Both the position numbers and the translations under genes were made by a program. From positions 1-64,000 of the IMG/VR virus record IMGVR_UViG_3300028591_000168: DNA of 64,000 bases. One strand, 5' to 3'. The notes beneath the pieces were generated by a model, which worked only from the letters and a program-made list of their open reading frames with translations, was not told the origin of the DNA and searched no databases. This stretch comes from a virus. Its lineage: Duplodnaviria; Caudoviricetes. Positions within the stretch are counted from its first letter, which is position 1. Each line of letters starts with the position of its first letter. Shown here piece after piece: positions 7,303 through 46,334 of this stretch.

Positions 7303-7331
7303 TGTGAAAACCTCCTTATAAAGTAACAGTT

Positions 7332-7488
7332 TTGATATCAACACAAAAAGACAGAACAATCATAACAGTTACACAGAAGATAACTTCCAATAGTTTGGGA
7401 CCTTAGCTGACGGCCACTCAAACTCTTTGCTATAACTGATATCTGCGTAACTGTTACTCTTGTTCTGTCTTTGTTGTGTTGATATCAA
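7332..7488. other. 157-nt long imperfect inverted repeat (rod-like hairpin)
   Basis: TTGATATCAACACAA-AAAGACAGAACAA ... TTGTTCTGTCTTT-G-TTGTGTTGATATCAA; inner TAACAGTTAC/GTAACTGTTA. Confidence 0.85.
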
Positions 7489-24455: not shown

Positions 24456-24477
24456 GGGCCTCAAATGAGGCCCAAAA
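24451..24477. terminator. terminator hairpin whose U-tract doubles as the P1 strand of twister E
   Basis: GGGCCTC AAAT GAGGCCC flanked by A/T runs. Confidence 0.7.
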
Positions 24478-27172: not shown

Positions 27173-27436
27173 GATAATCAACCTCCTTTGGTTGCACACT
27201 CTGTCTGATATCTTCAGCTCAGAGTCGAGACCCATGACGTGGTCTCTTTACAGGTTTACCCACCCTTGATTATAGTGAGATGATCCTCACTCGAGATTAT
27301 ATTGCCTGTACAACGCTGTCAGAAAAAGCTAACGTTGAAGGCGAGTCTCGGTTGCCCATTCAAACCTGTTAGAAAGCATGGGATATATGTTAACGTAAAC
27401 TCATATATCGGATATAAGCTTACGGTTGATCAGTAT

Positions 27437-29697: not shown

Positions 29698-29732
29698 CAG
29701 CAGCAGAAAAACCTTACAAAGGAGTGTTAACA

Positions 29733-30371
29733 ATGTCTGATAACGGTTGTGACGACAAGCTTTCAACCTTTTTGGCTGCTCTTCCTGAAAATCCGTGGGG
29801 GTTGTCAAAAAAAGGTTTGTCTGCAAAGAGGGCTGCTACTGCCCTTAACGCGGTTAAGACAGGCATGTACTCTTCGATACCGATAATCTGTAAGGGCGCT
29901 GCCTGCCCTTACGCTGAAACTTGCGCACTGTTACCGTATGACTTGGCACCTGAAGGTGACCTGTGTCCCGTTGAGATATCAAAGATAGAAGCTTTAATCC
30001 AAGGTTACGTCTCTGACTTTGACCTTGACGATATGAGCTTTACCGACAGAGCCTTGGTTAGTGAGGTAGTCAGTCTTGATATTATGCTTGACAGGTGTAA
30101 GGCTTTGATGGCTAAGGAAGGGACGCCCGTCCTTGACGTGGTTATCGGGATATCAGAACACGGTGAAGAGATACGGCAACCTGCAGTATCAAAGAGTATA
30201 GAGGCTTACGAAAAGCTGACGAAGAGAAAAGATAACAAGCTTATGATGTTAGCTAAGACTAACAGAGATCGTCAACGTTTTGCGCCGGAAACAGATAAGC
30301 AAAGCTGGATCCAAAGTGTAGCTGACGTTATAACGATTGACGACCTTGAGGAGAGCAACAAGATATCGTAA
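29733..30371 (+). CDS. Cys-containing protein, possible terminase small subunit (212 aa)
   Basis: AAAGGAG RBS; KTGMYS, CKGAACPYAETC...CP; helical C-terminus; position in the late operon upstream of TerL. The TerS call is an inference. Confidence 0.4.
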   Translation: MSDNGCDDKLSTFLAALPENPWGLSKKGLSAKRAATALNAVKTGMYSSIPIICKGAACPYAETCALLPYDLAPEGDLCPVEISKIEALIQGYVSDFDLDDMSFTDRALVSEVVSLDIMLDRCKALMAKEGTPVLDVVIGISEHGEEIRQPAVSKSIEAYEKLTKRKDNKLMMLAKTNRDRQRFAPETDKQSWIQSVADVITIDDLEESNKIS

Positions 30372-30390
30372 AGAAAGGAGAAAGAGAAAA

Positions 30391-30792
30391 ATGGGCATAC
30401 CGTTTTCTGGAACAGCTAGTTTTCTAAAGAGATGGACTGACGCTTACGGTAAAGGCATAAGTAGAGATGACCTGCTCAGCTTTGGTCAAAAGATCTACAG
30501 CAATGACGCTATCGAAAAGATAGGAGAGAACGGGTTACCTGCCGGTAACTTGTTTCAGAGTACGTTCCTTGAGCTTGACAGAAGAATAGCTAACAGTCCT
30601 AAACTGTTGGCAAAATTGGGTACTGAGGTAACAAATGCTGAAGGTAAAAAATACACCCAGCTTGGAGGTATGGCAAGGGCCAAAAGCTTGTTCTATAACG
30701 CTTACGGTTCTGACGCCGGTGAGCTGTCTTACGCAAGGGTAGGGGTAGCAGGCATAGCAGGATCTTACCTGGCTTATAAGGTATTGTCATAA
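30391..30792 (+). CDS. hypothetical protein with C-terminal Gly/Ala hydrophobic segment (133 aa)
   Basis: AAGGAG RBS; LSYARVGVAGIAGSYLAYK. Confidence 0.75.
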   Translation: MGIPFSGTASFLKRWTDAYGKGISRDDLLSFGQKIYSNDAIEKIGENGLPAGNLFQSTFLELDRRIANSPKLLAKLGTEVTNAEGKKYTQLGGMARAKSLFYNAYGSDAGELSYARVGVAGIAGSYLAYKVLS

Positions 30793-30824
30793 AATGTAGC
30801 GATATCGAAAGGAGGCGACACCTT

Positions 30825-31322
30825 GTGGGAACAGTTAAAGACTTTATGACTACGGTCAATCACTTTGCTACGGCTTACCTTGACGGTACTAAAGATTTTC
30901 AAATGCAACGGGGAAAGCCCATAATCCTTCTTGAAGGCAACAAGGCAATTAACGCGTTTAGTGCCGGTAACCTTTTTGACAGTGTGCGTTTTGCTCTTGA
31001 CCAAAGATTCTATAACACGGCAAAGGATAAGGGAGGAAAGATCTCTTATCGAGACAATTACTCTTTGTTGGAAAAAGCAGGAGCACAAAGAATAGTACAA
31101 GAAGGCGGCAAACAGACTGACGGCACTGTTAAGAACAATAAACCCTTAAGCCAGTGGAATATTAGTGACAAGGAAAGGTTACAGTCTCTAATGTATGATC
31201 GTGACGGTAACTTTGCTTACGCAAGAATGGCTACGGCAGGCGTAGTATCAGGCGCGCTTGGTTTACACTTCTTGTCTGACTTTACAACTATGCGACACGC
31301 TGTAGGAGTACCTTATATCTGA
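30825..31322 (+). CDS. paralogue of the preceding protein (165 aa)
   Basis: AAGGAGG RBS; FAYARMATAGVVSGALGLHF. Confidence 0.75.
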   Translation: MGTVKDFMTTVNHFATAYLDGTKDFQMQRGKPIILLEGNKAINAFSAGNLFDSVRFALDQRFYNTAKDKGGKISYRDNYSLLEKAGAQRIVQEGGKQTDGTVKNNKPLSQWNISDKERLQSLMYDRDGNFAYARMATAGVVSGALGLHFLSDFTTMRHAVGVPYI

Positions 31323-31363
31323 GAACAAAAGTGTGTAAAACAAGAAAGGGTGGTGATATCGTT

Positions 31364-31804
31364 ATGTTTCAGACAGCGTGGAATTTTGTCAAACACGGAG
31401 GAAAGACTGTCAGCCAGCTTACCAGAAGTGCAGTTAGCGGTCGTACACACACGTTGATATCAGACAAGGTAGGAGAAGATTACGCTAAGGATCTTGTTGC
31501 GTCAGGAGTGCCCCAGTATCAGGTTGCTGACGCTATTAACGCACAAGAAGGATTGTTGGCTCTTTACAAGAAGGCAGGTACGCCTGTTAACGCCGGTGAC
31601 AACATAGGAGCTACCGGTCTTGACGCGATAAAGAGCCATTACTACAAACTACAAAGCGGTACTACCAAGGATAACGCTGTCTTTACCTTCGACGACAGCA
31701 AAGCATTTTATGACGGGACTGCGGTAGCTGCCGCTACAGCTGCTGCTATTGTAGGTTTTAAGGCTGTTCAAACAGGAGTTTCGTTATTAACGGGTGACTA
31801 CTAA
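31364..31804 (+). CDS. hypothetical protein with C-terminal Ala-rich segment (146 aa)
   Basis: GGGTGGTG RBS. Confidence 0.7.
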   Translation: MFQTAWNFVKHGGKTVSQLTRSAVSGRTHTLISDKVGEDYAKDLVASGVPQYQVADAINAQEGLLALYKKAGTPVNAGDNIGATGLDAIKSHYYKLQSGTTKDNAVFTFDDSKAFYDGTAVAAATAAAIVGFKAVQTGVSLLTGDY

Positions 31805-31871
31805 CAGTGGTTACCAACAATAACCGGTAAAAATGTTGATATCAGCTGATATCACAAGGAGGTGATCGACA

Positions 31872-32420
31872 ATGCCTGTTTGGTCACAGGTTATAGGAAA
31901 AGGTTTAACGGGAGCTTTAAAGGTAGGATTAGGTTTTGGAATACAAGCAGGTAAGATGGGATGGAAGAGTGCCGCTGCTGTAGGAGAAGGCATTATGGGC
32001 ACCAGCAAAAGGATAGGAGAAGGTTTTGTCGATGCCAGCAAAAAGGTAGGTGGCGTCTTAGCAGAACCCTTTGCGACACCTGAAGCCAGAAGACAAACAG
32101 GTATTAACGCTGCCGAGACTATCCGTGACGTAGGTAACGCTTTTGTTCGAGAAAATGCCAAAGGCCATATGGAGCTGACCGGCAGAGGCCTTGGTATTAT
32201 CGGAGCTATAACGGTAGCCGACAAGCTTCGAGATTCTTACTATGACACGAAGACAGAGAACCTTGGTATTGTTGATCGGCAACCGGTTAGAGCTACACCT
32301 GACTATCGACCCCGACAGTACGAGATGCATCCGCCAAAGAGGATAACTGCTGACAGTGGCGGTGCTACCGGCGACCTTGTGTTTGCACTGCACAACCTTA
32401 GGAACCAAGGTCTTTACTAA
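31872..32420 (+). CDS. Gly/Ala-rich hypothetical protein (182 aa)
   Basis: AAGGAGGTG RBS. Confidence 0.8.
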   Translation: MPVWSQVIGKGLTGALKVGLGFGIQAGKMGWKSAAAVGEGIMGTSKRIGEGFVDASKKVGGVLAEPFATPEARRQTGINAAETIRDVGNAFVRENAKGHMELTGRGLGIIGAITVADKLRDSYYDTKTENLGIVDRQPVRATPDYRPRQYEMHPPKRITADSGGATGDLVFALHNLRNQGLY

Positions 32421-32460
32421 CGGTTGATATCAGCTGATATCACGAGGAGGTGATCTTACT

Positions 32461-32901
32461 ATGTCAACCAGTAGTAGTTTAGGAAAGGTAATCTGGAACG
32501 CGGTTTCTAATCACGGTGTTAATATCGGGTTGACAACTTACTTTGGTATCGACGCTTATCAGGAAGCCAGAAGAGAAGGATCGGGTTTCTTGGGCAGTGC
32601 TGCTGCAGCAGCTGAAAATATGGCTTTACCTATGGTTATGCCTGGTGGCTTACCCGGTTACTTTGCCTTTGAGCTTGCTACCAGTATGCCGAGTTTAGCT
32701 ATCGACTTTTACAAGGCACAACGAGATTACCGAAGGAAGCTTGGTGTAGAACAACGACACAAGGCTTTTCAAAGCGCAAGCTTTCAAGATACCCAAATGA
32801 CTTACACTATGCGACAGGCTGCTATGGCTATAGCACAGCGCAGTCGTTACAATACCCAAGCAGCAATGTTAGGACAAGAAGCACAGTATATGTTAAAGTA
32901 A
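32461..32901 (+). CDS. hypothetical protein (146 aa)
   Basis: GAGGAGGTG RBS. Confidence 0.8.
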   Translation: MSTSSSLGKVIWNAVSNHGVNIGLTTYFGIDAYQEARREGSGFLGSAAAAAENMALPMVMPGGLPGYFAFELATSMPSLAIDFYKAQRDYRRKLGVEQRHKAFQSASFQDTQMTYTMRQAAMAIAQRSRYNTQAAMLGQEAQYMLK

Positions 32902-32914
32902 GGTGATATCAAAG

Positions 32915-34582
32915 ATGGCAGGTAGACTATCTACAGCAAAAAAGCTTATGAACTTTTTAACTAAAGATTTGCAAATGGATACCAAAGAAGCAAAAAATAT
33001 TCTTGGACAATTAGGACAAAAAGATAAATTTTATGAAGGAGATAATGCGGAACGCTTTTTAAGTCACATAGAGGAAAAATTTAAAATAGCAAGAGACAAC
33101 CCACAATTGGGTCATACTGATACTGATCCCATAATAAAGGACTTTTTGTCGGTAAATAATATTGGACAAACGACTTGGGACAGAGGATACCGTACGGGAA
33201 CTTTTACAGAGAACTGGAAGGATATGGGATTTGACCGGTATGATTATCATGATAGATATAATCAAATTTATAATGATAATTTACGACAAGCAGTGAGAGG
33301 TAATTTTAATTACAGTAAATTAAACGATATTGAAAAACAGATGTCTACAGTAAGTCCAGAAAGTCTTGCTGAAAAAAATGGTTTTTCAATAAGTAAAGAT
33401 GGCAAGTTAATACCAAAATCAGAAGAATTAAAAATAGAAAAACCAGAGGGAGCACTAACTCAAGAAGACATTGATCGTGTAAATAAAGAATTTCACCAGC
33501 GTAAAACACCAATAATGGCTTTTCAAAGAGAATATGAAAGACTGCGATTTGCTAAAGACATGGGCATGGACCCTAAATATCTCAGTCTTGAAAGTATGGA
33601 CAGAGTTAAGGCAAACATACGAGAGAACTTGGATAAAGCATCTCAAGGTGGATCGGTTAACCAGATATTTCTTAATCAACTGGATAAAGATGGGGCGATA
33701 CGGGCACGCCAAGCAGCTATAGACAATGCTAATAAAAATATTGCTGACAGTCAGAAGATTCTTGATGAGTATGAAAACCGTCTAAAAGAACAAGGTGCAA
33801 ATTCTGATGTTATTCAAGAGTCCTTTGATACTTTTAATTATTTGGATCAACTAGCAAAGGTCACAGATGAACAAATAGCAGCGCAGGCAGGTCAGACAGG
33901 TTCTGACGTAAAGAACGTGATAGAAACAATGAAAGCAGCCCGTACTTTTGCACAAAATCCAACTGACGAAAAAGTAATAGCTGATTACGTAAAAACAATG
34001 CAAGATAAAGGATTAAAGGGTTATGATATAGAAAATCAGACACATATTGGGAAAGCTTACGCAGCACACGTACGTCTAAAGCAGGCTCAGGAAGATCTAG
34101 AAAAGATAGGATCAGGCAAAACCTTGCAAGAGACAGCGGCAGGATCTGCACAAGAAGCAGCCGTAGCTGACGCTGCTGCTGACTTCTCAGGCGTTTTGCC
34201 TACTTACGAACAAGCTATGGCTGGTAACGGAAAGGTTTCTCTTGATCGTGCTATGTTACGAGAAAGAATGAAAGGCGATCCGTCAAGCTGGGGCTTTGAC
34301 GCTGCGGCTGAGCATCTTGCGAAAGAACAAGATACGTACCTTGGTAAAAGAATTGAAGAGATTAAAAAGAGCAAGGCTTCTGACGCCGAAAAGAGAAAGA
34401 TGTTTGATGACGCTATTGCTACCGTGCAAAAAAACGTAGCTGAAGGTCCCGGTATGTCTAACTACTTCTTTGGTAATCAACTTCATACGGGGGCTGTAGG
34501 AGCGGCAGCTATCGTAGGAACCATGGGCGTAGCCTTTGGTGGCCGCAAGAGTAACGCTGAGCTTTACTCGTCACCATTCTAA
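32915..34582 (+). CDS. helical hypothetical protein with C-terminal Gly/Ala segment (555 aa)
   Basis: AAGGTG RBS; ends GAVGAAAIVGTMGVAFGG. Confidence 0.8.
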   Translation: MAGRLSTAKKLMNFLTKDLQMDTKEAKNILGQLGQKDKFYEGDNAERFLSHIEEKFKIARDNPQLGHTDTDPIIKDFLSVNNIGQTTWDRGYRTGTFTENWKDMGFDRYDYHDRYNQIYNDNLRQAVRGNFNYSKLNDIEKQMSTVSPESLAEKNGFSISKDGKLIPKSEELKIEKPEGALTQEDIDRVNKEFHQRKTPIMAFQREYERLRFAKDMGMDPKYLSLESMDRVKANIRENLDKASQGGSVNQIFLNQLDKDGAIRARQAAIDNANKNIADSQKILDEYENRLKEQGANSDVIQESFDTFNYLDQLAKVTDEQIAAQAGQTGSDVKNVIETMKAARTFAQNPTDEKVIADYVKTMQDKGLKGYDIENQTHIGKAYAAHVRLKQAQEDLEKIGSGKTLQETAAGSAQEAAVADAAADFSGVLPTYEQAMAGNGKVSLDRAMLRERMKGDPSSWGFDAAAEHLAKEQDTYLGKRIEEIKKSKASDAEKRKMFDDAIATVQKNVAEGPGMSNYFFGNQLHTGAVGAAAIVGTMGVAFGGRKSNAELYSSPF

Positions 34583-34597
34583 GGTGGTGTAAACATT

Positions 34598-37500
34598 ATG
34601 GCGTTACCTTTAATAGAAAGATTGCTTAATGCCAGAGGAATTTCTGACACTACCGCTATCAAGAACTTTCTAAACCCCCATACCGCTTTCGAAAACCCCT
34701 TTATGATGAAAGATATGTACAGCGCAGTCAGCAGAATCGAAAGAGCTATCAAAAGTGGTGAGCGGATAACTGTTTTTGGTGATTACGACGTTGACGGGGT
34801 ATCAGCTACTGCGATAATGTATCGTACCCTGTCAGATCTTGGAGCTGCTGTTGATACCTACATTCCTAAGAGATCTGAAGGATACGGTCTTAACAGTAAC
34901 GCTCTCAAAAGTCTTGCTGAAAAAGGTACTAACCTGTTAATAACGGTTGACACGGGTATCGGTAACGAGAAAGAGATCTCTGAGATCGCTGACAAGTTTG
35001 ACGTTATCGTTACCGATCACCACCTGGTACCTGAGGGTGGTGTGCCGTCAGCCGTTGCTGTCCTTAATCCGCACCAAGCAAAAGATTACTATCCTAACAA
35101 AAATCTTAGTGGTGCAGGCGTTGCCTTCAAGCTTAGCCAAGCCTTGAGAAACAAGATAACAGGTGCTGATATCCAAAAGTCAGTTGAAAATCTTGAACTT
35201 GCAGCGTTAGCTACCGTTGCTGACGTTGTGCCTATGACAGGAGAGAACCGAAAGATCGTAGCTGACGGCTTAAAGGCTATCCAAGCGTCGCAAGATAAGG
35301 CAATCCAAGCACTGTTAAAAACGACAGATCTTGCACAAAAAAAACACCTTACTGCTGAAGATATCGGTTTTAAAATAGCACCCCGTATTAACGCTGCAGG
35401 CAGGGTAGAAGATCCCGGCATAGCGCTGTCCTTGTTCACTCTTGATCAACAAGAGAACAAAGCTGTCTTTCAAAAAATAGCTGATTCTTTGTCCGAGCTT
35501 AACAAGAAGAGAAAAGCTATAGAAGCTGATATCGTTCAAAGTGCAGAAAAACAGCTGTTACAACTGCGACAACAAACAGGCGGTTATATCAGTTCCGTCA
35601 TTGTTGAAAACAAAGGGTGGCACGAGGGCGTTGTAGGTCTTGCGGCAGCAAGGTTATCTGAAAGACACAAACTGCCGTCGATAGTGCTAACCAGCGAAGA
35701 CGGCAAGATCTATCACGGATCTGCCCGCAGTGTACCGGGCTTTAACGTTATGGATGCGCTTAGGGAAACTGACAAGTTCTTGCTAAGGTATGGCGGTCAC
35801 GAACAAGCAGCAGGTTTAGTCATAAAAGCAGAGAACCTTTCTGCCTTCAAGGCTGCGTTTGATAACTTTGCAAGGGATAACTTTCCGTCTCTTGCTGCTC
35901 TTGAACTTGTAGACGCAGATCTGGATCCTGCAGAAATAACCTTAGCTGACGCTAAAGAACTTGAAAAGATGGGGCCTTTTGGTGTTAACAACGAAAGACC
36001 AATTTTTGGAGTCTCTGACGTTAGGGCCAGTGACGTTAGAACAAGCAGTGACGGTAAACACTTGTTTTTTAATATTGGCGATAAACGTGCTGTAGCTTTT
36101 GGTGCAGGTAACCTGGAAGACTTAGTTAGGGACAGCAACGTCGACGTTACCTTCTCTCTTGATATCAACGAGTTTAGAGGAACAGAAAACGTTCAGCTTA
36201 ACGTTAAAAGTGTAAGGCCTGTTGCCGGTAACTCTGTTAAGGCCTTGTCTGACACTGTTATCCAAGATATCTACAAGTTCTTGCAGACAAGAAGCAATGA
36301 ACCTTTTAACGTTAGTACCTTGGCTGCTGACTTCAGTAAAAAAACAGGTGTGCAGATATCCGGGTATGACTTTGGTACAGCTACTAAGATCTTGGAAGAG
36401 TTAGGACTTTTTTCTGCTGTAGTTAATGACGGATCTGTTTTTACTGCAAGTCATAATGGTAATATCAACTTTACCGGCTCACAAACTTACCGTAACCTTA
36501 AAGGTATCACCTTATCAGGGGCACCTGTTCGAGTTATTCCTGTCTCTGATCCTGTTGAAAATGTAACACCTGTTACTCCTGCCCCTTCTGTATCACCTTC
36601 TTCCGGTACACCTACCGTTGCAGCGTCAGTAACACAAGATATCGTCGTATCACCACCACCTGTGGCAGAAGAAACGGCAGCAGCAGTTATTACAGAAAAT
36701 GTAGCTGCGCCGGTAGATCTTGTAACGTTGCCTGAAGAAAACATTTCTGCTGAGACAGTTGTTAAGGAAACAGAAAAAGCCGGTATTGTCGTTGATACGC
36801 CAGATGCTCCACCTGTACCGGTACAAGAAGAGATATCTGCAGCAGTACAAAAGGATCTCAAGATTACTCGTGATATCCCGGAAGTTTGGGACTCCGTTTC
36901 TGTTAACACTGCAGCTGACGTTGCTGCCCCTGTTAAACCTACGCTAGTATCTGTTGACCCTAAAATAGCTGACAGAGTTCGTAATATGAAACAGAAGTTA
37001 GCAGAGAGTAAAAAGCAAAACAGCACAAAGCCTAAACAAGAACGACAAAAAAGACAAACGGATATCAAACCGACAAAGCCTGAAAAAAGAGAGCAGTGGT
37101 TTATTGACAGGATCAATGAACTTATAAAATATTTTCGTTATCCGTTACCCGCTAATGACGCACCATTAGATGAAATTTTATTGAGCAAGATTAGAGACGA
37201 AAGTTTAAGAACACAGATAAGCTATCCTGATCCTGATCTTGTTGACGAGAAGACTTACATACAAGAACTTATACGTCTTAAGGAAGAACAAGCCAGCAGA
37301 GATCTTGACGCCTTAAAAAAAATTATTAACGTTAAGACCGACGAACTTGGTAAAAAACTTGTTGATATCAGGCTTAACGAAATAGGAAGCGCTGCAGAAG
37401 AAGCTCTCAGAGAAAGTTACGAGAGTGGCAATATTGAGGCAGCAACTACGTTCTATGACGAAGATCTCGCAAAAGTCAGAATAAGAAAGAAATACGTAAA

Positions 37501-40500
37501 AGGTAAAGACGGACAAGAGTATCTGAGAGATACTTCAGCTGAAACTACTCTTAATGAGTGGTTACGGCAACTTTCTGACACAAAGTATCCCGGAGTAACG
37601 AAACAAGCTAAAGAACTGAGAGAACGTTATATCGCGCTTTCCGGAAAACAGGATTACAAACAACCGGGATCTACTCTTCACAGAGAAACGATAGTCTTGC
37701 GAGAGAAGATAGGCAAAGAGATAGCAAAAAGAGCAGGCAAAGATATTGAAGACAAGGTCAAAGATCTGGCTTCCAAGGGCGGCTCTCTTCTTTATCGCAG
37801 AATAGCTGACAGGATTACAGCTTTAGATAATGACGTATTAACAGCAGAACAGCAAGGCATTATCAACAGGTTAATGTTTAACTTTGAGACTGACGTAGAC
37901 ATTTTTGAGTCTTACCAACAGATTGCAAAAACTTTAGGATTAAAGGTTAAGTTTAAGAAAGACCAGTCAGCTGTCGACAAAGTTAAGATTTATCGCAAAG
38001 AGTTAAGCGAAAGACTTGAAGAAATCAAAGGAAGACAAGATATCGACAAGATATCACTTGGTTACCTTGACCTGATATCAGCTAACAAAGATAAAGACGA
38101 CGAAGGTTATAAGGCTGCCAAAAAGCAACTGATAGAAGCCAGGACAGACGGACTTTGGAATTCCAGGGTTAGAAACCTTGAAAATCCCAGCCAAGGTAAG
38201 CCTACCGAAAATCTTGCACTATGGTTAAGATATGCTGACGTTGCTATTGCAGATCAACAACAGAGACGAGCTGAGCTTTTAGATCCTAACATAAGCTTGG
38301 AACGTTTTAACGAGCTGTTAGAAGATCCCAAGTATAGACACGTAATGCCCAGGGTATCCTACACTAAAGACGGTAAACAAGCTACAAGAATGGCAGGTAC
38401 GAGATTTAACAATAAGTTATATCGTGTTGGCATATCGGGATTAGCTGATATCGACCTTGATCGTCTTAAGACTGACGTTGCAGAAGTATTGGCTCCGTTC
38501 TACGACAGTATCAGAGAGAGTCATAACCGTATTATTGCAGCAAGAAGCTTAACCGAAAAAGGTTTGTCTGATCAGATTATATCGCTTCAAAATTCTTTAA
38601 CTGTTACCCCTCCCAAGGAAGGCGACTACAGGCTTAAAAGACTTAAGGGAGTACAAAAACTTTATGATTACGTAACAAATGATCCTACCAAGGTAATCCA
38701 AGATAAAATTGAAGAAAAAGGCTATACCGCAGGTCTGCGTAAGGCCATTTACCTTGAAGAAAAACTAAAAATAGAAGCTGACATTTACGAAACTGATCCT
38801 AACGCAAAAATATTGCTTAGCAGAGATCTTAAGGGTGACGAAAGATTATCTGCACTCCGTGATATCAGAACTCAAAAACAATGGGCTGCTGCTGATATCC
38901 CTATATTGTCTGAGGGACTTTCTGCTCCTAACTTTGTTGGTAAACAATCTCTTGAGAAACAATGGCGTTGGTGGCAAACTGCTATTAATAACGTAAGACA
39001 ACTTTCAAGCGAATCTTTTGAGGACGTTCAAGAACGTCTTCGTAATTTAGAATCTTCTGAAAGAAAAAACTACCTTAAGTCACTTCCAAAAGATTATATT
39101 GTTGAGGTTAAAGGCGCTGCTGCAGGAGACTCTTCTATCTTTTATAGGACTATCGCTGACAAGGAAATATTAGATGAGTTTGAAGAGAAACTAAATACTA
39201 CAATAAAAACTTTATTTGAACAAGATCGACAGGGACTAATAGAACATTATAATAAAAGACTAGAAGATCTTGATACCAGACGTAAGATGCTTGAAGAAAA
39301 AGATGCCGCAGAAAAAACTAAGGAAGACACAGAAGAATTAGAGAAGATACTCACTACAGAACAAAAACTACAGAAGAAACAAACTGCTCTGAGTGAAGCA
39401 GTTGATCCCGTTACCAGGATTGACGAAAAAGCTGCAATACAAGGTCAACGTATTTCTTGGAAACAACAAAGTGCAGAAATTTTACAGTTACAACGTGATA
39501 TCAGAGATATCATTCCGTCAATAAGCTTTAAGGATATCTTTGACGAAAGAGAAAAAGACACTAAAGTTGACAAAAAGACTAAGTATTCTAACAGAGTTAT
39601 AGCGTTAAGAGAAATTCATGATGAGTTAAAAGCAGTACAACAAGAATCGTTTGATGATTTCCAAAAAAGAGTAGCAGACTTAGGATCTCTTCCTGCGTGG
39701 TTACCAAAACATAGTCTTATCAAGATAGGTAAAGAAGAAGGACAAAATGTTCGTTATTATCGTACTTTCGTTGACGAAGATACTCAACAGCTTGATAAAG
39801 AAATACAAGAGAATCTTAATACCATTAGAGAAACAGACGAACAAATACAAAAAATCTTTAAAGAACAAGCTAATAAGAAGTTAGAGTATCTGCAAAAACA
39901 GGAACAGCAATATCCTACACCTGACGGATCACAAAGAAAACAAGCTATAGAGAGATTAACTGACAGATTAGAAAAACTTAAAGATCAATCTAATGCTGCT
40001 GACCAGATAGAAAAAATTGGTGGTTATAACGCAAGATATCAGGTAGCACAAAGAGAAGCTACCAACTTGCCCACAAAGCTAAAAATTTTACAAGCAGATC
40101 CTAACTATCACTTTGACGAAGATTTTAAGTATGACACAGCTAATGAGGTTATTACTAACATTCAAAATGATACTAAGGCCCTTGCTGATATCAAAGGAAA
40201 ATATGAAGGTTACGATAACGAATACTTGTCAAGGTTTAAGCCTATAAAAGAACAACTTGATTGGTGGCAAACCTTTGATCAAGAGTATCAATGGTTAACT
40301 ACAGCTACACAAAAACAAGTTAGTGATAAACTCAACAGTTTTGACAGTGAAGAATTCAGAAACTACAGAAGGTCACTTCCTGATAACTTTTTTGATACTT
40401 TCTTTGTTAAACAAGATAAAATATGGTACAGGATAGGCACTGACGTAAGTGAACAAGAAGCTGACGTCATGAGGAAACGACAAGAAGAATACAACAAAGA

Positions 40501-41236
40501 TAAAAAGGAACGCGAGAAAGTTATTCTTAATACAGGGCAAAAACCTGTGCCTTCTGTTACTGCTCCTAACGTCTTTGGAATTGCTAACAGCAGCAGAATG
40601 GCTGACTCTTCCGTTATCGACAAAGTAACAGAAATGTCGAAGCTTACCGGACAAGCTTTTTCTGACAGTTATGATCAACTGCTGGTGACAGAACGAGAAG
40701 TATATGATCGTAACTTTGGTAAACCGATAAAAAGCAACGGTGTTTGGTACCAAAACATTTTTGTAATGCCAAATGACGCGTGGAAAGACTTTGAGGAACA
40801 AAACGGTCGTGCCATTCCGAGAGTAAGACCCGGTGTAGACAAACAAGAGTCTTATGACGTTGTTGCCGAACAGGAACTACAACAAAAGATAACTGCTGAT
40901 ATCAGAGAAAGATCTTGGAACTTTGTACCAAAAACCAGACCTGCGCTACCTGCACAGCAAACGCCGTCTTCACCTTCTGTTACACCGGAGACAAAAGAGA
41001 CAGCAGCTAAAACTGTAAGGCCAAAACCAGTTGCAGTAATCAAGGAACAGAAGAGTGCTATCGAGAAGGTATTACAAGAACTGAGATCACCTACTACTAT
41101 GAAGTCGATGGGTATGATGGGATTAGCAGGCGCCTTTGCTCTTTGGAATATGGCAATGACAGGACCGTCAAGAGAAGCACAAGAACACAGAAGAAGAGTA
41201 GAAGAAGAGAGAAGAATGAGACAGTATGGTTATTAA
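34598..41236 (+). CDS. recJ: RecJ (DHH) ssDNA exonuclease fused to a ~1500-aa linker, coiled-coil region and hydrophobic tail (2212 aa)
   Basis: GDYDVDG, ITVDTG, TDHH, LATVADVVP, PRINAAGR, GSARS, YGGHEQAAG, PFGVNNERP in the first ~600 aa. Confidence 0.9.
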   Translation: MALPLIERLLNARGISDTTAIKNFLNPHTAFENPFMMKDMYSAVSRIERAIKSGERITVFGDYDVDGVSATAIMYRTLSDLGAAVDTYIPKRSEGYGLNSNALKSLAEKGTNLLITVDTGIGNEKEISEIADKFDVIVTDHHLVPEGGVPSAVAVLNPHQAKDYYPNKNLSGAGVAFKLSQALRNKITGADIQKSVENLELAALATVADVVPMTGENRKIVADGLKAIQASQDKAIQALLKTTDLAQKKHLTAEDIGFKIAPRINAAGRVEDPGIALSLFTLDQQENKAVFQKIADSLSELNKKRKAIEADIVQSAEKQLLQLRQQTGGYISSVIVENKGWHEGVVGLAAARLSERHKLPSIVLTSEDGKIYHGSARSVPGFNVMDALRETDKFLLRYGGHEQAAGLVIKAENLSAFKAAFDNFARDNFPSLAALELVDADLDPAEITLADAKELEKMGPFGVNNERPIFGVSDVRASDVRTSSDGKHLFFNIGDKRAVAFGAGNLEDLVRDSNVDVTFSLDINEFRGTENVQLNVKSVRPVAGNSVKALSDTVIQDIYKFLQTRSNEPFNVSTLAADFSKKTGVQISGYDFGTATKILEELGLFSAVVNDGSVFTASHNGNINFTGSQTYRNLKGITLSGAPVRVIPVSDPVENVTPVTPAPSVSPSSGTPTVAASVTQDIVVSPPPVAEETAAAVITENVAAPVDLVTLPEENISAETVVKETEKAGIVVDTPDAPPVPVQEEISAAVQKDLKITRDIPEVWDSVSVNTAADVAAPVKPTLVSVDPKIADRVRNMKQKLAESKKQNSTKPKQERQKRQTDIKPTKPEKREQWFIDRINELIKYFRYPLPANDAPLDEILLSKIRDESLRTQISYPDPDLVDEKTYIQELIRLKEEQASRDLDALKKIINVKTDELGKKLVDIRLNEIGSAAEEALRESYESGNIEAATTFYDEDLAKVRIRKKYVKGKDGQEYLRDTSAETTLNEWLRQLSDTKYPGVTKQAKELRERYIALSGKQDYKQPGSTLHRETIVLREKIGKEIAKRAGKDIEDKVKDLASKGGSLLYRRIADRITALDNDVLTAEQQGIINRLMFNFETDVDIFESYQQIAKTLGLKVKFKKDQSAVDKVKIYRKELSERLEEIKGRQDIDKISLGYLDLISANKDKDDEGYKAAKKQLIEARTDGLWNSRVRNLENPSQGKPTENLALWLRYADVAIADQQQRRAELLDPNISLERFNELLEDPKYRHVMPRVSYTKDGKQATRMAGTRFNNKLYRVGISGLADIDLDRLKTDVAEVLAPFYDSIRESHNRIIAARSLTEKGLSDQIISLQNSLTVTPPKEGDYRLKRLKGVQKLYDYVTNDPTKVIQDKIEEKGYTAGLRKAIYLEEKLKIEADIYETDPNAKILLSRDLKGDERLSALRDIRTQKQWAAADIPILSEGLSAPNFVGKQSLEKQWRWWQTAINNVRQLSSESFEDVQERLRNLESSERKNYLKSLPKDYIVEVKGAAAGDSSIFYRTIADKEILDEFEEKLNTTIKTLFEQDRQGLIEHYNKRLEDLDTRRKMLEEKDAAEKTKEDTEELEKILTTEQKLQKKQTALSEAVDPVTRIDEKAAIQGQRISWKQQSAEILQLQRDIRDIIPSISFKDIFDEREKDTKVDKKTKYSNRVIALREIHDELKAVQQESFDDFQKRVADLGSLPAWLPKHSLIKIGKEEGQNVRYYRTFVDEDTQQLDKEIQENLNTIRETDEQIQKIFKEQANKKLEYLQKQEQQYPTPDGSQRKQAIERLTDRLEKLKDQSNAADQIEKIGGYNARYQVAQREATNLPTKLKILQADPNYHFDEDFKYDTANEVITNIQNDTKALADIKGKYEGYDNEYLSRFKPIKEQLDWWQTFDQEYQWLTTATQKQVSDKLNSFDSEEFRNYRRSLPDNFFDTFFVKQDKIWYRIGTDVSEQEADVMRKRQEEYNKDKKEREKVILNTGQKPVPSVTAPNVFGIANSSRMADSSVIDKVTEMSKLTGQAFSDSYDQLLVTEREVYDRNFGKPIKSNGVWYQNIFVMPNDAWKDFEEQNGRAIPRVRPGVDKQESYDVVAEQELQQKITADIRERSWNFVPKTRPALPAQQTPSSPSVTPETKETAAKTVRPKPVAVIKEQKSAIEKVLQELRSPTTMKSMGMMGLAGAFALWNMAMTGPSREAQEHRRRVEEERRMRQYGY

Positions 41237-41266: not shown

Positions 41267-43627
41267 ATGGCAACAAAAATGTCACCAGTAGAAGTTGAGA
41301 AAGTTAAGGCTATTTTAAAAGATCCCGTTCTTTGGGCTAAAGCTTTTGTTGTAGCCTTGAATCCTGAAACCAAAAAGTACGGACCTTGGATAGCTCGTGA
41401 CTACCAAGCAGAACTTCTCAGAAATCGTGATATCAGGAAAGCTTATCGTATGGGACGCAGGTTAGGAAAAACCGAAATAATGTGCATAGACGGTTTGTGG
41501 CAATGTTTTACCCATAAGAACTACCGTGTACTGTATGTTACCCCTTACGAAAACCAAGTTAACTTGATCTTTATGAGAATGAGAGAGATCATTCACGAAA
41601 GTCCTATGATAAAAGCTGAAGTCGTTAAAATGAAGAACTCACCTTACACTATCGAGTTTGCTAACGGGTCTACGATTCTGGGCTTGACTACGGGCGCAAG
41701 CACAGGTCAGGCCGCAGCGTCAATTCGCGGCCAGCGAGCTGACTGGATTTTTTTGGACGAATTGGATAAAAATTAAGAAAACTTTATAGTTCAAGTAAAA
41801 CTCCGTTAAACGGTGAAAGACCCAAGGGGTTAACGCCGTACCAAGCTGTAGCGGTAACGTTATAGTAGTGTCTAACGACTAGAAGTGAGACCTACGGGTC
41901 AATAAAATCTTCCACGAAAGCGGGGCAACTCTCTGATATCATATCGTCAAGAAGTTTTTATCAGAGCAGAAGAAATAGTCTGAACTCATAGGTAACTATG
42001 AGATAACGGAATAAAAAGTCCGTTGATAACAAAGTGTATATGAACAGTGGTGATTACGGTACAGTGTCAGCAATAGCTAACGAGCGTCCTGATATTGGCA
42101 TCACTGTATCATCAACACCTACAGGACGTCGCGAAATATTTTGGCGTGCTTGTACTGATTCTAGTTTTGGTTACACAGCTTGGCACATTGCAAGTCAACG
42201 ATCTCCTTTGTGGACCGAGGACATGGATACACGAGCGCGTGCTGAGCTGACTCAACAAGAGTACGAACACGAAGTTCTTGCAGAGTTTGGTACAGAAGAG
42301 TTAGGTGTCTTCAACAAGGAAGATATCGACAAGGCTGCAAGGCAGTTATGGTACACTTACGAACTATTAAACAAAATGCAAGAGAGATCTATAGAAGGGC
42401 AACAACCGCCCTTATCTTTTGTATTTACAAGAGAAAACCCTGCACCGCAAAGCTTGCTTCGAACTGTTGGGGTCGATTTTGACAAGTTTCAAGCAGGTTC
42501 TTCTATTATAGTTCTTGATTATGATATAAAAGTTAAGAAGTTTATAGTAATGAAGCGAATAGAGATACCACGTAGTGAGTATACTCTTGATAACGCTGTT
42601 AAGGCGATTATCAGTGTTAACGAAATTTATAATCCCCGTTGGATCTTTCTTGATCGTGGTTACGGTGAAAAAGTTTTGATATCAAGAATACGTCTGTGAT
42701 ATCAAAGTACGCCGCCTTACAAGACAGATATCTTACAGTAATAGTTTTGTAAGAGTATAACCGGACAAAAACGGTAAAAGCTGTGACGTGCTGATACCGT
42801 GGTAACTCATAAGTGAGTACCGTAACGCGTAGAAGGTGCAATAATCTTTCCAAGAGTGTCCGGCACAGCAGATATCTCTGTGAAAATGTACGCTGACCCT
42901 GTACGAAAGTGCAGGAAGCAAGGGATAAAAAGCCTTTGCGATAACACAAGTGGATTATCAACTTGAAAGGTTACAAATTTACGGGGAACAACACCCTAAC
43001 ACGGGTTTAAAAAATAAGGTAATGGGTTTTCAACTTAGCCAGGTTATTAACGTACCTAATCCGGTTAAGAAAACTTTTTCTAAGGAACCGCTAAAACCTT
43101 TTATGGTTAATTCCTTAGTTAAGGCCTTTGAAGACGGCAAAATGATACTTTCACCATTTGACGAAGTGTTGTCAAAGCAACTTATTGACTATTCTGTTGA
43201 AAGAGTAACTCAAAGTGGTAAACCTGTTTACACCAGTAAAAACGAACATTTTGTTGACGCACTGGGGTTAGCTTACCTTGCTATGGTACTTAAGTTTCCT
43301 GAGGTAACCCAGTACATTAAGGAAATACAAAACACAAGTGTAATATCTACTGCTGTGTCACCTTTCTATGACAGAGTAGATCGTGATATCAGAAGCATTG
43401 AAACAGTTAGAGATCCTTGGGGTTCTAAAAATCGTCCTGTATCTCAGATAGGAAAAGGCCCCGGTGAAAGAGCAGGAGAATATCAACAGTGGGTTAAGGC
43501 GCCTGAAAGAATAACCGGAAAAGGTTATAATCTTAGAGTGTCTGCACCAAGGTCTTCTAGTAATGGCAATTACGGCAGTGCGTTTTCAAGAAGTCCAAGG
43601 GGTACAGGTGGTCGCAGTTTATGGTAA
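41267..43627 (+). CDS. terL: terminase large subunit, join(41267..41767,42037..42666,42953..43627), 601 aa
   Basis: GRRLGKT Walker A; IFLDELD|YM Walker B restored by splicing; SSTPTG; GVDFD and DRGYG|DYQ nuclease motifs; HFVDAL. Confidence 0.9.
41768..42036 (+). mobile_element. group I intron 1 in terL (269 nt, no ORF)
   Basis: 5' exon ends in U (UUGGAU pairs with GUUCAA); intron ends in G; P/Q/R/S elements AAACGGUGAA, ACGCCGUACC, ACGACUAG, AAUAGUCUG; frame restored. Confidence 0.88.
42667..42952 (+). mobile_element. group I intron 2 in terL (286 nt, no ORF)
   Basis: Exon ends GGU, intron ends G; P7 variant ACGCGUAG/GUACGCUG; frame restored. Confidence 0.85.
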
Positions 43628-43646
43628 GGAGGACTTAAAAGGTATT

Positions 43647-46334
43647 ATGGCAATAGACAAGAACCGATATAATCTTTTATACAAGCCTGACCTTAGTCCT
43701 ATTCGTGACTGGAGATCTGAGGCTGTTTTTGAACACCCTGATATCCCAATAGCTGAAACACCACCTGAAACCGTTGATGACGTATTGCAAGATCTTAAGG
43801 ATTTAGAAGAAGTAGCGGCAGGGTTGCCTGAAGGACTTGATCCGATATTAGAGATAACCCGAAAGCTTAGACAAAGAGCAGAGATCTTAAAAATAGAAGA
43901 AGAATTAGAGAAGCTTGTGGGTATTCCGGGTACGTTACCAAGCACCGGTTCTACCTTGTCTTCTCCTGGCACTTTACCGCCCTACTCAGGATCAGGAACT
44001 TCTGTTCCGGGCGGCGGTTTTATTCCTACAGGAGTAACTATTGTACCTGCAACACTACCCGGTATTGATACTCTCCCCGGTACTACCAGTACTCTTCCAG
44101 GTAGTACGGCCACTGTCCCCGGAATACCGGGCAGTCTGCCGGGAGGAAGTACAATTCCGGGATATCCCGGTACACTTCCTGGCTCTGAGACTATCCCTGG
44201 TTATCCAGGCACTATACCCGGAAGTCCGGGTACGATACCGGGCTCACCAGGATCGTTACCCGGATCAAGTACAATTCCTGGATATCCAGGATCAGTTACA
44301 GGGGGCGGTACTTTACCCGGTGGTACAACAGATACTCTAACAGGAGTATCAACTACAGGAGGTTCTATTCCCGGTTTTACACCTGGATCTGATATCGGAA
44401 TAAGTGTGATATCAGGCAGTGTTACAGGAGGCGGTACAGGTATACCGGGTGGCGGTAATCCTACTATTATTCCTGTGCTGACTGATACTATACCGGATAT
44501 TCCAGGAACAACAGGTTCAATACCGGGAGGCATTCCCGGAATATCGGGTGGTCTTGACTCCGTTAGCGTTATTATTCCTTCTGTTACGATAAGACCTGGT
44601 ACTGTTGACGAAGAAGGATACGGTACAACACCTTACGTTACTATTAGAAGTGGTGATATCAACAATTTTGACAAGGACACAATTCCGGCACCGGGTACCA
44701 TTATTATTCCTGACGTTGAACAACAAGTGTTGTTAGATAACAGCAGTGAACCTGATACGTCGTGGATAAAAGATATGTCTTCAGTCTTTGTGCCAAAAAC
44801 TGATATCACTATATCAGTACAAACACCAAAGAGTCTTGTTCAGGTAGCACACGAGTCATACAAGAGTGACCAACTTGATCTTCAAAAATTTTATCTTCAA
44901 AAAATGAGAATGGCATTGCAGAGATATTTTCACCATATTTTAGGATTAACTGTTGAACTTGGACTTTCAGATCCTGATATGTTAACAAAAAAATATGACG
45001 GTAATAACGTAGTAGGAATCGGCATTAACAGTAATCACCTTCACGATACCATTATCAGGTCACAGATTCAACGCTTACAAAAAGCAAGACTCTTCAAAAA
45101 GGTCGCTAACGCCGATCTAACGGTAACTCATATGCGTGCCTGGAATGTCGCTGCTAAGGCAAGAGAAAGATACTACACCGAAGCTTACGGTGACTCTGCT
45201 GAGTTTGTTGACTCTGAAGCCAATATGTTGTTACGACAAGCACGTGCTGACTATGACGCTGCCTACAAGTTATCACTGTACAATATGTACAAATACCTTG
45301 ACGCGTCGGTTAAGCTGACAGAAGATATCTTGGATCATACTCTTGTTGAGGCTAAAGCTAAAGCTAAGCTTGTTAAAGAAGGCGTTGATATCTTCAAGAC
45401 TGAAGAAGTAGAAACAAGCAGCAGCACTAACGCTGTTACCCGTATGCAACCCAAAACCAAGGAACAACAAGAAGCAGAAAATCAAGTTAGTAAGCAAGGT
45501 GACAGTAAGACTAACGTTAATCTCACACCTGACGAGATTGATAAAGCAAGAGGTATTGAAGATCCTGACGAAGACTTCGATCTTGCACCAAGTGGCGGTC
45601 ATTACTCTAAGAACGATATCCTTTACTTGTGTAATCTCGACGCCGGTATTTATAACAAAGAGACACCTGTCGGCAGACAAGCTATCAAGAATGTTCTTAA
45701 CCAGAGTGATAAGTATATGAAGGGTACTGACACGGCAACTAATAATGCTGCAACAACCGGTAATACCACAGCAACCGGTAGTAGTATTACACCGTCACCC
45801 GTAACAGCGTCAACAGGAGCTATGCCTAACAGTGACATAGGTCTTAGTACTTCGCCCGTATCAACAACTGCTGCTGACACTATACCGTCGTCTACTGTAG
45901 GGCCAGAGTCACAAAAGAAAGTTGAGCAAGCTACTGGTACAGGTAACGGTGCTACAAGTGAAACACCGCCAACAACCACTAGTAAAACTTCGCCTTATAA
46001 AAAGTTTCCCGCTAACTTTACACCTGATCTTTACGTCTTAAATACTGATTATGAAGACAAGAGTGCTCCTAAGAGTAATCTTTTAGCTAATACCGGTGGC
46101 TATTACGCATCAATTACTGCAACAGGTAATACTGTGAGTGCAAGAATTATTTCACCTTATGGCTTTGCAATATTATGGGCAAACCGTAAGGATATTAATA
46201 AAAAGAAACCTGAAATGTCTTTCGAAGATGGATGGAATTTAATTGAACGTAGTGAACATAAAGGTCACATTACTAAGGATATGTATAAAAAGGTGTATGA
46301 TTACTTCGTAAGTTATAAACCTGATATCAAGTAG
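43647..46334 (+). CDS. 895-aa protein with Gly-Pro-Thr-rich (T/S-I/L-P-G) repeat region, probably structural
   Basis: AAGGAGG RBS; more than 20 xPG motifs at ~43920-44700; lies between terL and portal. Confidence 0.75.
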   Translation: MAIDKNRYNLLYKPDLSPIRDWRSEAVFEHPDIPIAETPPETVDDVLQDLKDLEEVAAGLPEGLDPILEITRKLRQRAEILKIEEELEKLVGIPGTLPSTGSTLSSPGTLPPYSGSGTSVPGGGFIPTGVTIVPATLPGIDTLPGTTSTLPGSTATVPGIPGSLPGGSTIPGYPGTLPGSETIPGYPGTIPGSPGTIPGSPGSLPGSSTIPGYPGSVTGGGTLPGGTTDTLTGVSTTGGSIPGFTPGSDIGISVISGSVTGGGTGIPGGGNPTIIPVLTDTIPDIPGTTGSIPGGIPGISGGLDSVSVIIPSVTIRPGTVDEEGYGTTPYVTIRSGDINNFDKDTIPAPGTIIIPDVEQQVLLDNSSEPDTSWIKDMSSVFVPKTDITISVQTPKSLVQVAHESYKSDQLDLQKFYLQKMRMALQRYFHHILGLTVELGLSDPDMLTKKYDGNNVVGIGINSNHLHDTIIRSQIQRLQKARLFKKVANADLTVTHMRAWNVAAKARERYYTEAYGDSAEFVDSEANMLLRQARADYDAAYKLSLYNMYKYLDASVKLTEDILDHTLVEAKAKAKLVKEGVDIFKTEEVETSSSTNAVTRMQPKTKEQQEAENQVSKQGDSKTNVNLTPDEIDKARGIEDPDEDFDLAPSGGHYSKNDILYLCNLDAGIYNKETPVGRQAIKNVLNQSDKYMKGTDTATNNAATTGNTTATGSSITPSPVTASTGAMPNSDIGLSTSPVSTTAADTIPSSTVGPESQKKVEQATGTGNGATSETPPTTTSKTSPYKKFPANFTPDLYVLNTDYEDKSAPKSNLLANTGGYYASITATGNTVSARIISPYGFAILWANRKDINKKKPEMSFEDGWNLIERSEHKGHITKDMYKKVYDYFVSYKPDIK

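Follow-up and report, generated by a model that had tools for sequence, protein, structure and literature searches.

Our results revealed, in a 64,000-nucleotide stretch of a tailed-phage genome (positions 1 to 64,000 of IMG/VR record IMGVR_UViG_3300028591_000168, a 79.6-kb fragment; hereafter, the window), a gene in which an entire RecJ exonuclease is joined by a linker to a module equivalent to a whole free-standing protein of an orphan family. This gene (34598..41236, + strand, stop codon included) lies directly before terL, in a block of virion genes. The fusion is conserved among relatives, its catalytic motifs are intact, and it has been purged of cysteine. We propose, with about an even chance of being right, that its product is a late virion-associated carrier with RecJ as cargo, which would be loaded through a conserved C-terminal tail and delivered at infection.

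A complete RecJ in a conserved fusion

The gene reads as one unbroken frame over 2,212 codons and is preceded, ~9 nt 5' of its ATG, by a Shine-Dalgarno-like ribosome-binding site (AAGGTGGTG). Its N-terminal unit (residues 1-640) carries a DHH catalytic domain (residues 56-203, 34763..35206; PF01368, E 1e-21, 77.9 bits against a cut-off of 28.1, with the same span returned by a second genome search), a DHHA1 domain with the GGH motif (residues 334-426, 35597..35875; PF02272, E 8e-14, 52.3 bits against a cut-off of 25.9), a RecJ_OB fold (residues 438-537, 35909..36208; PF17768, E 3e-21, 75.9 bits against a cut-off of 27), and a C-terminal domain (residues ~546-640, 36233..36517), just past the equivalent point of which free-standing relatives stop. 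Bacterial RecJ (8y30, 5f54, and 2zxo/1ir6) and phage RecJ-like proteins (PHROG 2484 and gp79 of Bacillus phage 0305phi8-36) have these domains in the same order. Specifically, PHROG 2484 (RecJ-like single-stranded DNA exonuclease) matched residues 4-541 (E 4e-109), and the best match among solved structures was 8y30 (E 6e-88), followed by 5f54 (2e-68) and 2zxo (3e-61).

The motifs DYDxDG, VDxG, DHH, ADxV, PRxNAxGR, GSxRS, and GGH could each be aligned to solved RecJs. DHH motifs I-IV read DYDVDG, VDTG, TDHH, and ADVV and align to 8y30 and 5f54, and GGHEQAAG in the DHHA1 domain aligns with the GGHxMAAG of RecJ structures; further, the catalytic residues are unchanged in the alignment of the four fusion orthologues described below. 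The nearest free-standing RecJs (660-690 aa, 42-47% identical) have the ...FEELGL...SRTYRL stretch too and end soon after the counterpart of residues ~600-633. Since their alignments span 98% of residues 1-640 and they stop soon after, the N-terminal unit corresponds to a whole recJ gene. By all sequence criteria tested, residues 1-640 are thus a complete RecJ, and the enzyme is apparently catalytically active. A first-pass annotation of the window had already recognized a complete RecJ motif set in the first ~600 aa, with which the three Pfam domains and the structure alignments agree. What distinguishes the window protein from free RecJs is a 1,570-residue C-terminal extension and the presence of zero cysteines. 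One near RecJ relative is labelled Selenomonadaceae, which offers a weak hint as to the host.

The RecJ unit is followed by a low-complexity linker (residues 641-827, 36518..37078; 17% Val, 12% Pro, 11% Ala, and 9% Thr), previously described as rich in Pro, Val, and Thr, that differs in length and sequence between orthologues. When residues 860-2212 served as the query of a word-indexed search, three long proteins of matching architecture emerged, each with the identical trio of RecJ Pfam domains: P0002 (2,211 aa, 98% identity overall), P0003 (2,180 aa, 62%, on a 238-kb contig), and P0004 (2,193 aa, 69%, on a 344-kb contig). Linker indels vary between these orthologues, yet the frame is preserved throughout the alignment. 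Neither the orthologue alignment nor the sequence revealed a conserved internal Met or a ribosome-binding site at the start of the module. A separate short form from an internal start was rejected as well, as Met796 is not conserved and a clear ribosome-binding site is absent. Since four sequences hold one frame across linkers of different lengths, the assembly frameshift or missed stop that the first-pass annotation had allowed for is excluded; the same fusion recurs in relatives and, on these alignments, is real and conserved. A further metagenome protein (P0005) is almost identical to the window protein over its last ~330 residues and only ~50% identical at its front, a mosaic pattern that suggests intragenic recombination between co-occurring phages.

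The orphan-family module

The remainder of the protein (residues 828-2212, 37079..41233) is equivalent to an entire free-standing family protein. An exhaustive phmmer search of 1.84 billion protein representatives, with residues 880-2079 as the query, found only 14 proteins; other than P0004, these span 334-1,289 aa and lack RecJ, and most are free-standing (650-1,290 aa), starting at their own Met with a common N-terminal motif. In P0006, which is 56% identical and lacks RecJ, the first Met matches the start of the module here (~residue 828). Both halves of the module are matched by free-standing members (phmmer E 1e-12 to 1e-211), and alignments place in it the conserved N-terminal helical domain (LRQLSD and YLDLV motifs) and the FGxP...Y...MP..W domain that precedes the tail. 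Family length varies via internal repeats. Three units of ~60-85 residues are mutually related in the window protein by local alignment against shuffles (A-C, z 10.3; A-B, z 7.9): repeat A (residues ~1450-1525, 38945..39172), with the pattern WWQ...SFED...LP...beta-hairpin...YR, repeat B (residues ~1670-1730, 39605..39787), and repeat C (residues ~1882-1950, 40241..40447).

The module is 35% charged. AlphaFold2, run with the small family alignment, gave a confident model of residues 828-1500 (mean predicted local distance difference test [pLDDT] 86.6; predicted template modeling score 0.59) and a fair model of residues 1501-2212 (mean pLDDT 74.3), both of which are nearly all alpha-helical with a few small beta-hairpins. 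The ~1300 aa of helical, charged sequence described earlier was therefore borne out, whereas the label of a giant coiled coil proved too strong: few helices reach the maximum of 45-51 residues, and structure prediction beyond RecJ did not show a coiled coil and matched no known fold. The anatomy in the first-pass annotation was correct and the fusion is conserved, and the extension is better described as a helical, repeat-bearing member of an orphan family that is usually encoded by a gene of its own.

The family proved to be rare. Searches of Pfam, PHROGs, and PDB profiles with the module returned zero matches, as did a megablast of the whole fusion gene against GenBank phages, and family members were not found in IMG/VR and GTDB genomes. 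A scan of JGI metagenomes yielded three loci, all from one sample, and a profile search of a 5.8-billion set, swamped by low-complexity words, yielded only 4 proteins. Among models, a VIA-align wide search with those of the module returned generic helical-hairpin/solenoid matches only (best Z 8.6 and 8.5 over 60-90 residues), and the ESM Atlas model of a family member (P0011) was poor, such that a usable structural neighbor was not obtained there.

Gene order nevertheless places the family consistently. In two metagenome loci (L002 and L001), a homologue of the 559-aa protein of the window is followed by a free-standing family protein and then by terL, and the window module likewise lies between the 559-aa-type protein and terL. 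In a more distant IMG/VR relative (L010), the block and terL are kept, and the slot holds two small unrelated open reading frames (ORFs). Judged from these arrangements, the carrier is an accessory, clade-restricted member of the pre-terminase block, and the RecJ fusion is confined to a single subclade. In L001 (1407-4374), the free-standing family gene spans two overlapping frames (651 + 378 aa), a frameshift that reflects either a sequencing error or a broken gene.

A pre-terminase block shared with 0305phi8-36

The window switches strand near 28.7-29 kb. Beyond this point, the + arm runs from an ORF112-like Cys-motif protein through six small to medium proteins to the fusion gene, a three-exon terL, a 923-aa Gly/Pro/Thr-rich protein, the portal, a protease/scaffold, a group II intron-interrupted gene, the major capsid protein, and the tail sheath. 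The order in 0305phi8-36 agrees (ORF112-116, terL, gp118/119, portal, protease/scaffold, decoration protein, and capsid protein), and the best matches of the portal are to Bacillus phages 0305phi8-36 and vB_BceM_WH1 and to Moorella phage MTATph1. Only 15 nt separate the preceding gene from the fusion gene and 30 nt separate the fusion-gene stop from the terL ATG, with no convincing + strand terminator seen between the fusion gene and its neighbors, and the fusion gene and terL apparently belong to the same operon. The claims that the gene lies immediately before terL and inside the virion gene cluster thus both held, with the terL, portal, protease/scaffold, and capsid genes downstream and, upstream, a block syntenic with that of 0305phi8-36.

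The block of the window shares order and strand, past the strand switch, with the pre-terminase block of 0305phi8-36, and three of its members are detectably homologous. The Cys-motif protein at its head (29724..30371) is a homologue of ORF112 (pairwise BLASTP, E 3e-24), and among the six Cys-poor proteins that follow (30337..34582; also in L002, L001, and L010), those at 31872-32420 and 32461-32901 match ORF114 (E 7e-6) and ORF115 (E 1e-7), respectively; a match of the ORF at 30825 to ORF113 is weak (E 0.016). According to the GenBank record of 0305phi8-36, mass spectrometry (MS) identified gp113, gp114, and gp116, whose genes lie a short way upstream of terL, in virions. The comparative paper on that phage does not discuss gp113-116. 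Two aspects of the window deviate from this relative. First, the slot before terL in 0305phi8-36 holds only gp116 (181 aa), without RecJ, whereas that of the window holds the RecJ fusion. Second, the RecJ of 0305phi8-36, gp79, is encoded in the replication arm, far from terL, while the RecJ here sits in the late virion arm.

Cysteine depletion of the RecJ domain

Cys is absent from all 2,212 aa of the fusion protein, the 640-aa RecJ part included, and from its three orthologues. In the 120 nearest free-standing RecJs, Cys makes up 1.59% of residues on average and no protein has fewer than 3; at their pooled frequency, the probability of 0 Cys in 640 residues is ~3e-5. The RecJ in the replication arm of 0305phi8-36, gp79, has 7. 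The surroundings of the fusion gene share the trait. The module family is almost Cys-free, as 10 of its 13 members have 0 Cys. Proteins of the pre-terminase block contain 0-1 Cys each in the window and are almost Cys-free in L002 too, whereas the early-arm proteins of the window contain 1.3-3.4% Cys. In a calibration covering the first 31 kb of 0305phi8-36, MS-verified virion proteins had 10 Cys in 5,515 residues (0.18%) versus 43 in 4,064 (1.06%) for the others. The terL product has 3 Cys over its three pieces here and 4 in 0305phi8-36, and the ORF112-like protein has 6 and 4, respectively; in the comparison of the two pre-terminase blocks, the latter is the one exception to a Cys-free composition.

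Low Cys content therefore marks the virion proteins of this lineage, and the RecJ domain has acquired this compositional trait since joining the carrier. That a RecJ domain should be Cys-free in the manner of virion proteins is, in our reading, the best evidence here that the enzyme shares their fate. The GC content at third codon positions (GC3) of the RecJ part (0.39) falls within the range of the plus-strand late genes (0.29-0.47), as opposed to 0.53-0.61 for the minus-strand early genes, so that the fusion is not a fresh import; a recent acquisition of RecJ from the early arm or from the host is not supported on this basis. If the pattern holds more widely, a Cys-free version of a domain that is Cys-rich elsewhere may flag cytoplasmic enzymes recruited into virions.

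The C-terminal tail

The protein ends in a near-invariant tail (41090..41233) consisting of a Gly/Ala/Met-rich hydrophobic helix, a GPS turn, and an Arg/Glu-rich helix (EHRRRVEEERR-type) ending YGY. Its hydrophobic helix (residues 2171-2187) lies in the Gly/Ala/Met-rich segment at residues 2171-2189. The tail forms invariant columns in three alignments and also closes the free-standing family members, and AlphaFold2 predicts two helices (residues 671-687 and 692-710 of the 1501-2212 model). The Kyte-Doolittle value of the hydrophobic 19-mer is 1.07, which is low for a membrane span; comparable segments of neighboring proteins reach 1.2-1.7. The likeness of this tail to those of neighboring late proteins, remarked upon in the first-pass annotation, was upheld, in that four of the six block proteins (30337-30792, 30825-31322, 31331-31804, and 32903-34582) also finish with Gly/Ala-rich hydrophobic segments. 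Several members of the 0305phi8-36 block carry Gly-rich hydrophobic segments as well.

Comparison of the tail with gp116 of 0305phi8-36 and with gp120 of vB_BceM_WH1 gave no significant E-values (gp116: BLASTP E 0.72, hhalign E 0.29). The latter, a 360-aa block protein (L005 5855-6937), has the same end layout, with a Gly-rich hydrophobic stretch, a Lys/Glu/Gln-rich helix, and AYGY, and its profile match to the family tail (E 0.073) is likewise not significant.

A speculative, and on balance improbable, extension is that the Gly-rich hydrophobic C-terminal segments of at least five block proteins constitute a shared signal for loading cargo to the procapsid interior or the portal. The C-terminal basic helix-turn-helix of the P22 scaffolding protein and the cargo-loading peptides of encapsulins are capsid-docking signals; like the tail, they are short, C-terminal, and Gly-rich hydrophobic and/or basic helical. 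Proteins with no other relationship would be docked by them within the HK97-fold procapsid or at the portal, much as encapsulin targeting peptides work; the P22 and encapsulin elements likewise sit on otherwise unrelated proteins that end up in an HK97-fold shell. The block tails are, however, alike in character without a strict motif, and the likeness to the P22 and encapsulin signals serves as a lead only. Were it correct, the RecJ fusion would represent natural enzyme loading, in which a DNA-end-processing nuclease is delivered with the genome, and the tail would provide a transferable tag with which foreign proteins could be brought into the heads of large phages.

Proposed virion carriage of RecJ and its alternatives

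We favor virion association because of two independent, indirect lines of evidence, namely, synteny with the MS-verified block of 0305phi8-36 and the loss of Cys. In the model we propose, the carrier would be an elongated helical protein with internal repeats, from an orphan family that belongs to the conserved Cys-free block preceding terL in large myoviruses of the 0305phi8-36 type. One subclade has an entire phage-type recJ joined to the N terminus of this carrier by a flexible ~190-residue linker. During assembly, the near-invariant tail would dock the protein at the procapsid or portal region, with the RecJ domain carried along as cargo, and at infection RecJ would enter the cell together with, or on, the leading DNA end. 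Once inside, it might degrade 5' single strands. The outcome could be exposed 3' tails within the terminal repeats, available for annealing or for recombination-primed replication, or the removal of host single-stranded DNA. Packaging, ejection, and substrate are what we infer from the sequence, and end processing, circularization, and anti-defense are guesses as to the job of the enzyme. The terminal repeats are 6.5 kb in 0305phi8-36 (GenBank record), a figure that holds for that phage.

Several observations weigh against this model. The absence of the family from L010 implies that the carrier is not a core structural part, and in 0305phi8-36 a carrier homologue was not detectable. Searches of GenBank phages by tblastn with the module and a second family protein (P0014) gave zero matches, and no named, annotated, structural, or proteomic record was found for any member of the carrier family. 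Foldseek searches of the AlphaFold2 module models against PDB and BFVD gave none at E <= 0.001 (TM <= 0.14), and nothing in the fold searches resembled known ejection or internal head proteins. Further, Cys depletion correlates with virion location and does not prove it; ORF115 of 0305phi8-36 is likewise Cys-depleted but was not detected in virions. Finally, to act on duplex ends, RecJ by itself depends on a 5' single-stranded tail or on a helicase (RecJ/RecQ), so it is not obvious how it would work on a blunt or packaged end just after injection.

Some of these points would suit a different fate for the protein, which we consider unlikely, as a late assembly or packaging helper that is absent from the finished particle. 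Here, the module would dock at the portal, the terminase, or the procapsid, the docked RecJ would trim single-stranded flaps and gaps on replicating concatemers during packaging, and the protein would leave before or during maturation. The position of the fusion gene directly 5' of terL, in the same apparent operon, fits such a helper, as do the very variable length of the family (650-1,385 aa) and its absence in L010, which would be expected of an accessory factor. Further, in MTATph1, a relative by its portal, a gene annotated as a DNA repair exonuclease (L007 2677-3537) lies between terL and the portal, indicating that this lineage does place nucleases in its packaging module. However, a cytoplasmic protein would have no obvious reason to lose all Cys, given that terL and the ORF112-like protein retain theirs, and the block includes MS-verified virion proteins in 0305phi8-36.

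Alternatively, the block proteins could be membrane-bound late proteins with their Gly-rich C-terminal helices as tail anchors, forming a complex at the cytoplasmic membrane, for superinfection exclusion or as a replication or assembly site, at which RecJ would be held. Five block proteins have their most hydrophobic segment in the last ~45 residues, and these segments show the small-xx-small (GxxGxxG) spacing that is typical for helix-helix packing in membranes. The low hydrophobicity given above, for both the fusion protein and its neighbors, makes this improbable, as do the strongly charged 22-residue helix that follows the segment in the fusion protein, which would be hard to translocate, and the presence of homologous block proteins in the virions of 0305phi8-36.

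A still fainter prospect retains the carrier and its location as in virion carriage and changes the substrate, with the DHH/DHHA1 domains cleaving nucleotide signals or short oligonucleotides (cyclic oligoadenylates, cyclic dinucleotides, or pApA) and so blunting CBASS or type III CRISPR signaling upon entry instead of processing DNA ends. Known DHH-family phosphodiesterases degrade such signals, and they have been proposed as a jumbo-phage counter-defense (PMC7824862). The protein has the true RecJ domain set, however, including the RecJ-specific OB fold, and its best matches (E 1e-88 to 1e-109) are to RecJ structures and families rather than to DHH phosphodiesterases such as NrnA or GdpP. 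Lastly, the merging of two genes by a sequencing or assembly error, or through a missed stop, carries a negligible probability: a low-complexity linker is a place where errors are likelier and nothing else was found in favor, against which stand four sequences, separately assembled and as little as 62% identical, that keep a single frame across variable linkers, as well as a module start without a conserved internal Met or ribosome-binding site.

Relation to known virion-carried enzymes

Phages are known to deliver a few kinds of enzyme with their DNA, namely, RNA polymerases, ADP-ribosyltransferases, anti-restriction proteins, and toxins. In the literature that we searched, the described virion cargoes did not include a recombination exonuclease, and no paper was found that joins RecJ, virion, ejected, and phage; a virion proteomics paper on phage G that mentions RecJ was irrelevant. 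The joining of an enzyme to a virion-type part is familiar from polyvalent proteins, MuF/SPP1 gp7-effector fusions, the N4 virion RNA polymerase, and T4 Alt (PMC5512222). With virion-carried enzymes of this kind, the window protein shares placement beside portal and terminase genes and a proposed delivery with the DNA, although in our case we infer the packaging. The fusion is thus probably, as far as its architecture goes, another case of the theme of an enzyme carried by a virion protein, with RecJ as the enzyme and an orphan carrier.

We nevertheless do not class it as a polyvalent protein because it has one enzyme domain, no signature domains, and an unrelated carrier. Polyvalent proteins each combine several effector or anti-defense domains (such as MuF, ArdC-N, metallopeptidase, methylase, helicase, and ART; PMC5512222), whereas the window protein has a single enzyme. 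None of their signature domains was detected by Pfam in the 2,212 aa, where only the three RecJ domains were found, or in the module family, and RecJ and DHH have 0 occurrences in the text of PMC5512222.

If RecJ is delivered with the genome, its role in resection and recombination, or in the protection of incoming linear DNA, becomes testable in large terminally redundant phages. Further, our results define an orphan family and a Cys-free block preceding terL, the latter conserved from Bacillus phage 0305phi8-36 to uncultured phages.

Other features of the window

The terL gene (41267..43627, + strand) is split into three exons (~41267-41767, 42037-42669, and 42956-43627), identified from PHROG terminase matches and by comparing translations with the terL of 0305phi8-36. 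An Rfam match to a group I intron (41744-42002) accounts for the first gap, although its ends do not agree exactly with the protein-based exon ends; the second gap, of ~286 nt, has zero Rfam matches and may be a divergent intron. The terL of a close relative (L003 375-2192) has its interruptions elsewhere: one follows just 74 codons, and the other is an insert with a 325-aa ORF that resembles, by eye only, a LAGLIDADG-type homing endonuclease. These differences indicate that the intron content of terL varies among these phages.

Downstream, the 923-aa protein after terL (43563-46334) contains long PG(S/T)xPG-type Gly/Pro/Thr/Ser repeats and occupies the slot of gp118/gp119 in 0305phi8-36, where gp119 is annotated as a curly-fiber candidate. 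Within 49807-53730, a group II intron (Rfam matches at 50045-50211 and 52195-52279) encodes a reverse-transcriptase/HNH ORF (50626-52188) and sits between 79-codon and 468-codon ORFs in the slot of the head-decoration gene of 0305phi8-36 and, from this position, probably splits that gene. In the early arm, on the - strand, a 1,209-aa protein (3730-7359) carries DUF1848 and Macro domains, and a 924-aa protein (24461-27235) carries a C-terminal Zeta-toxin/AAA_33 kinase domain.

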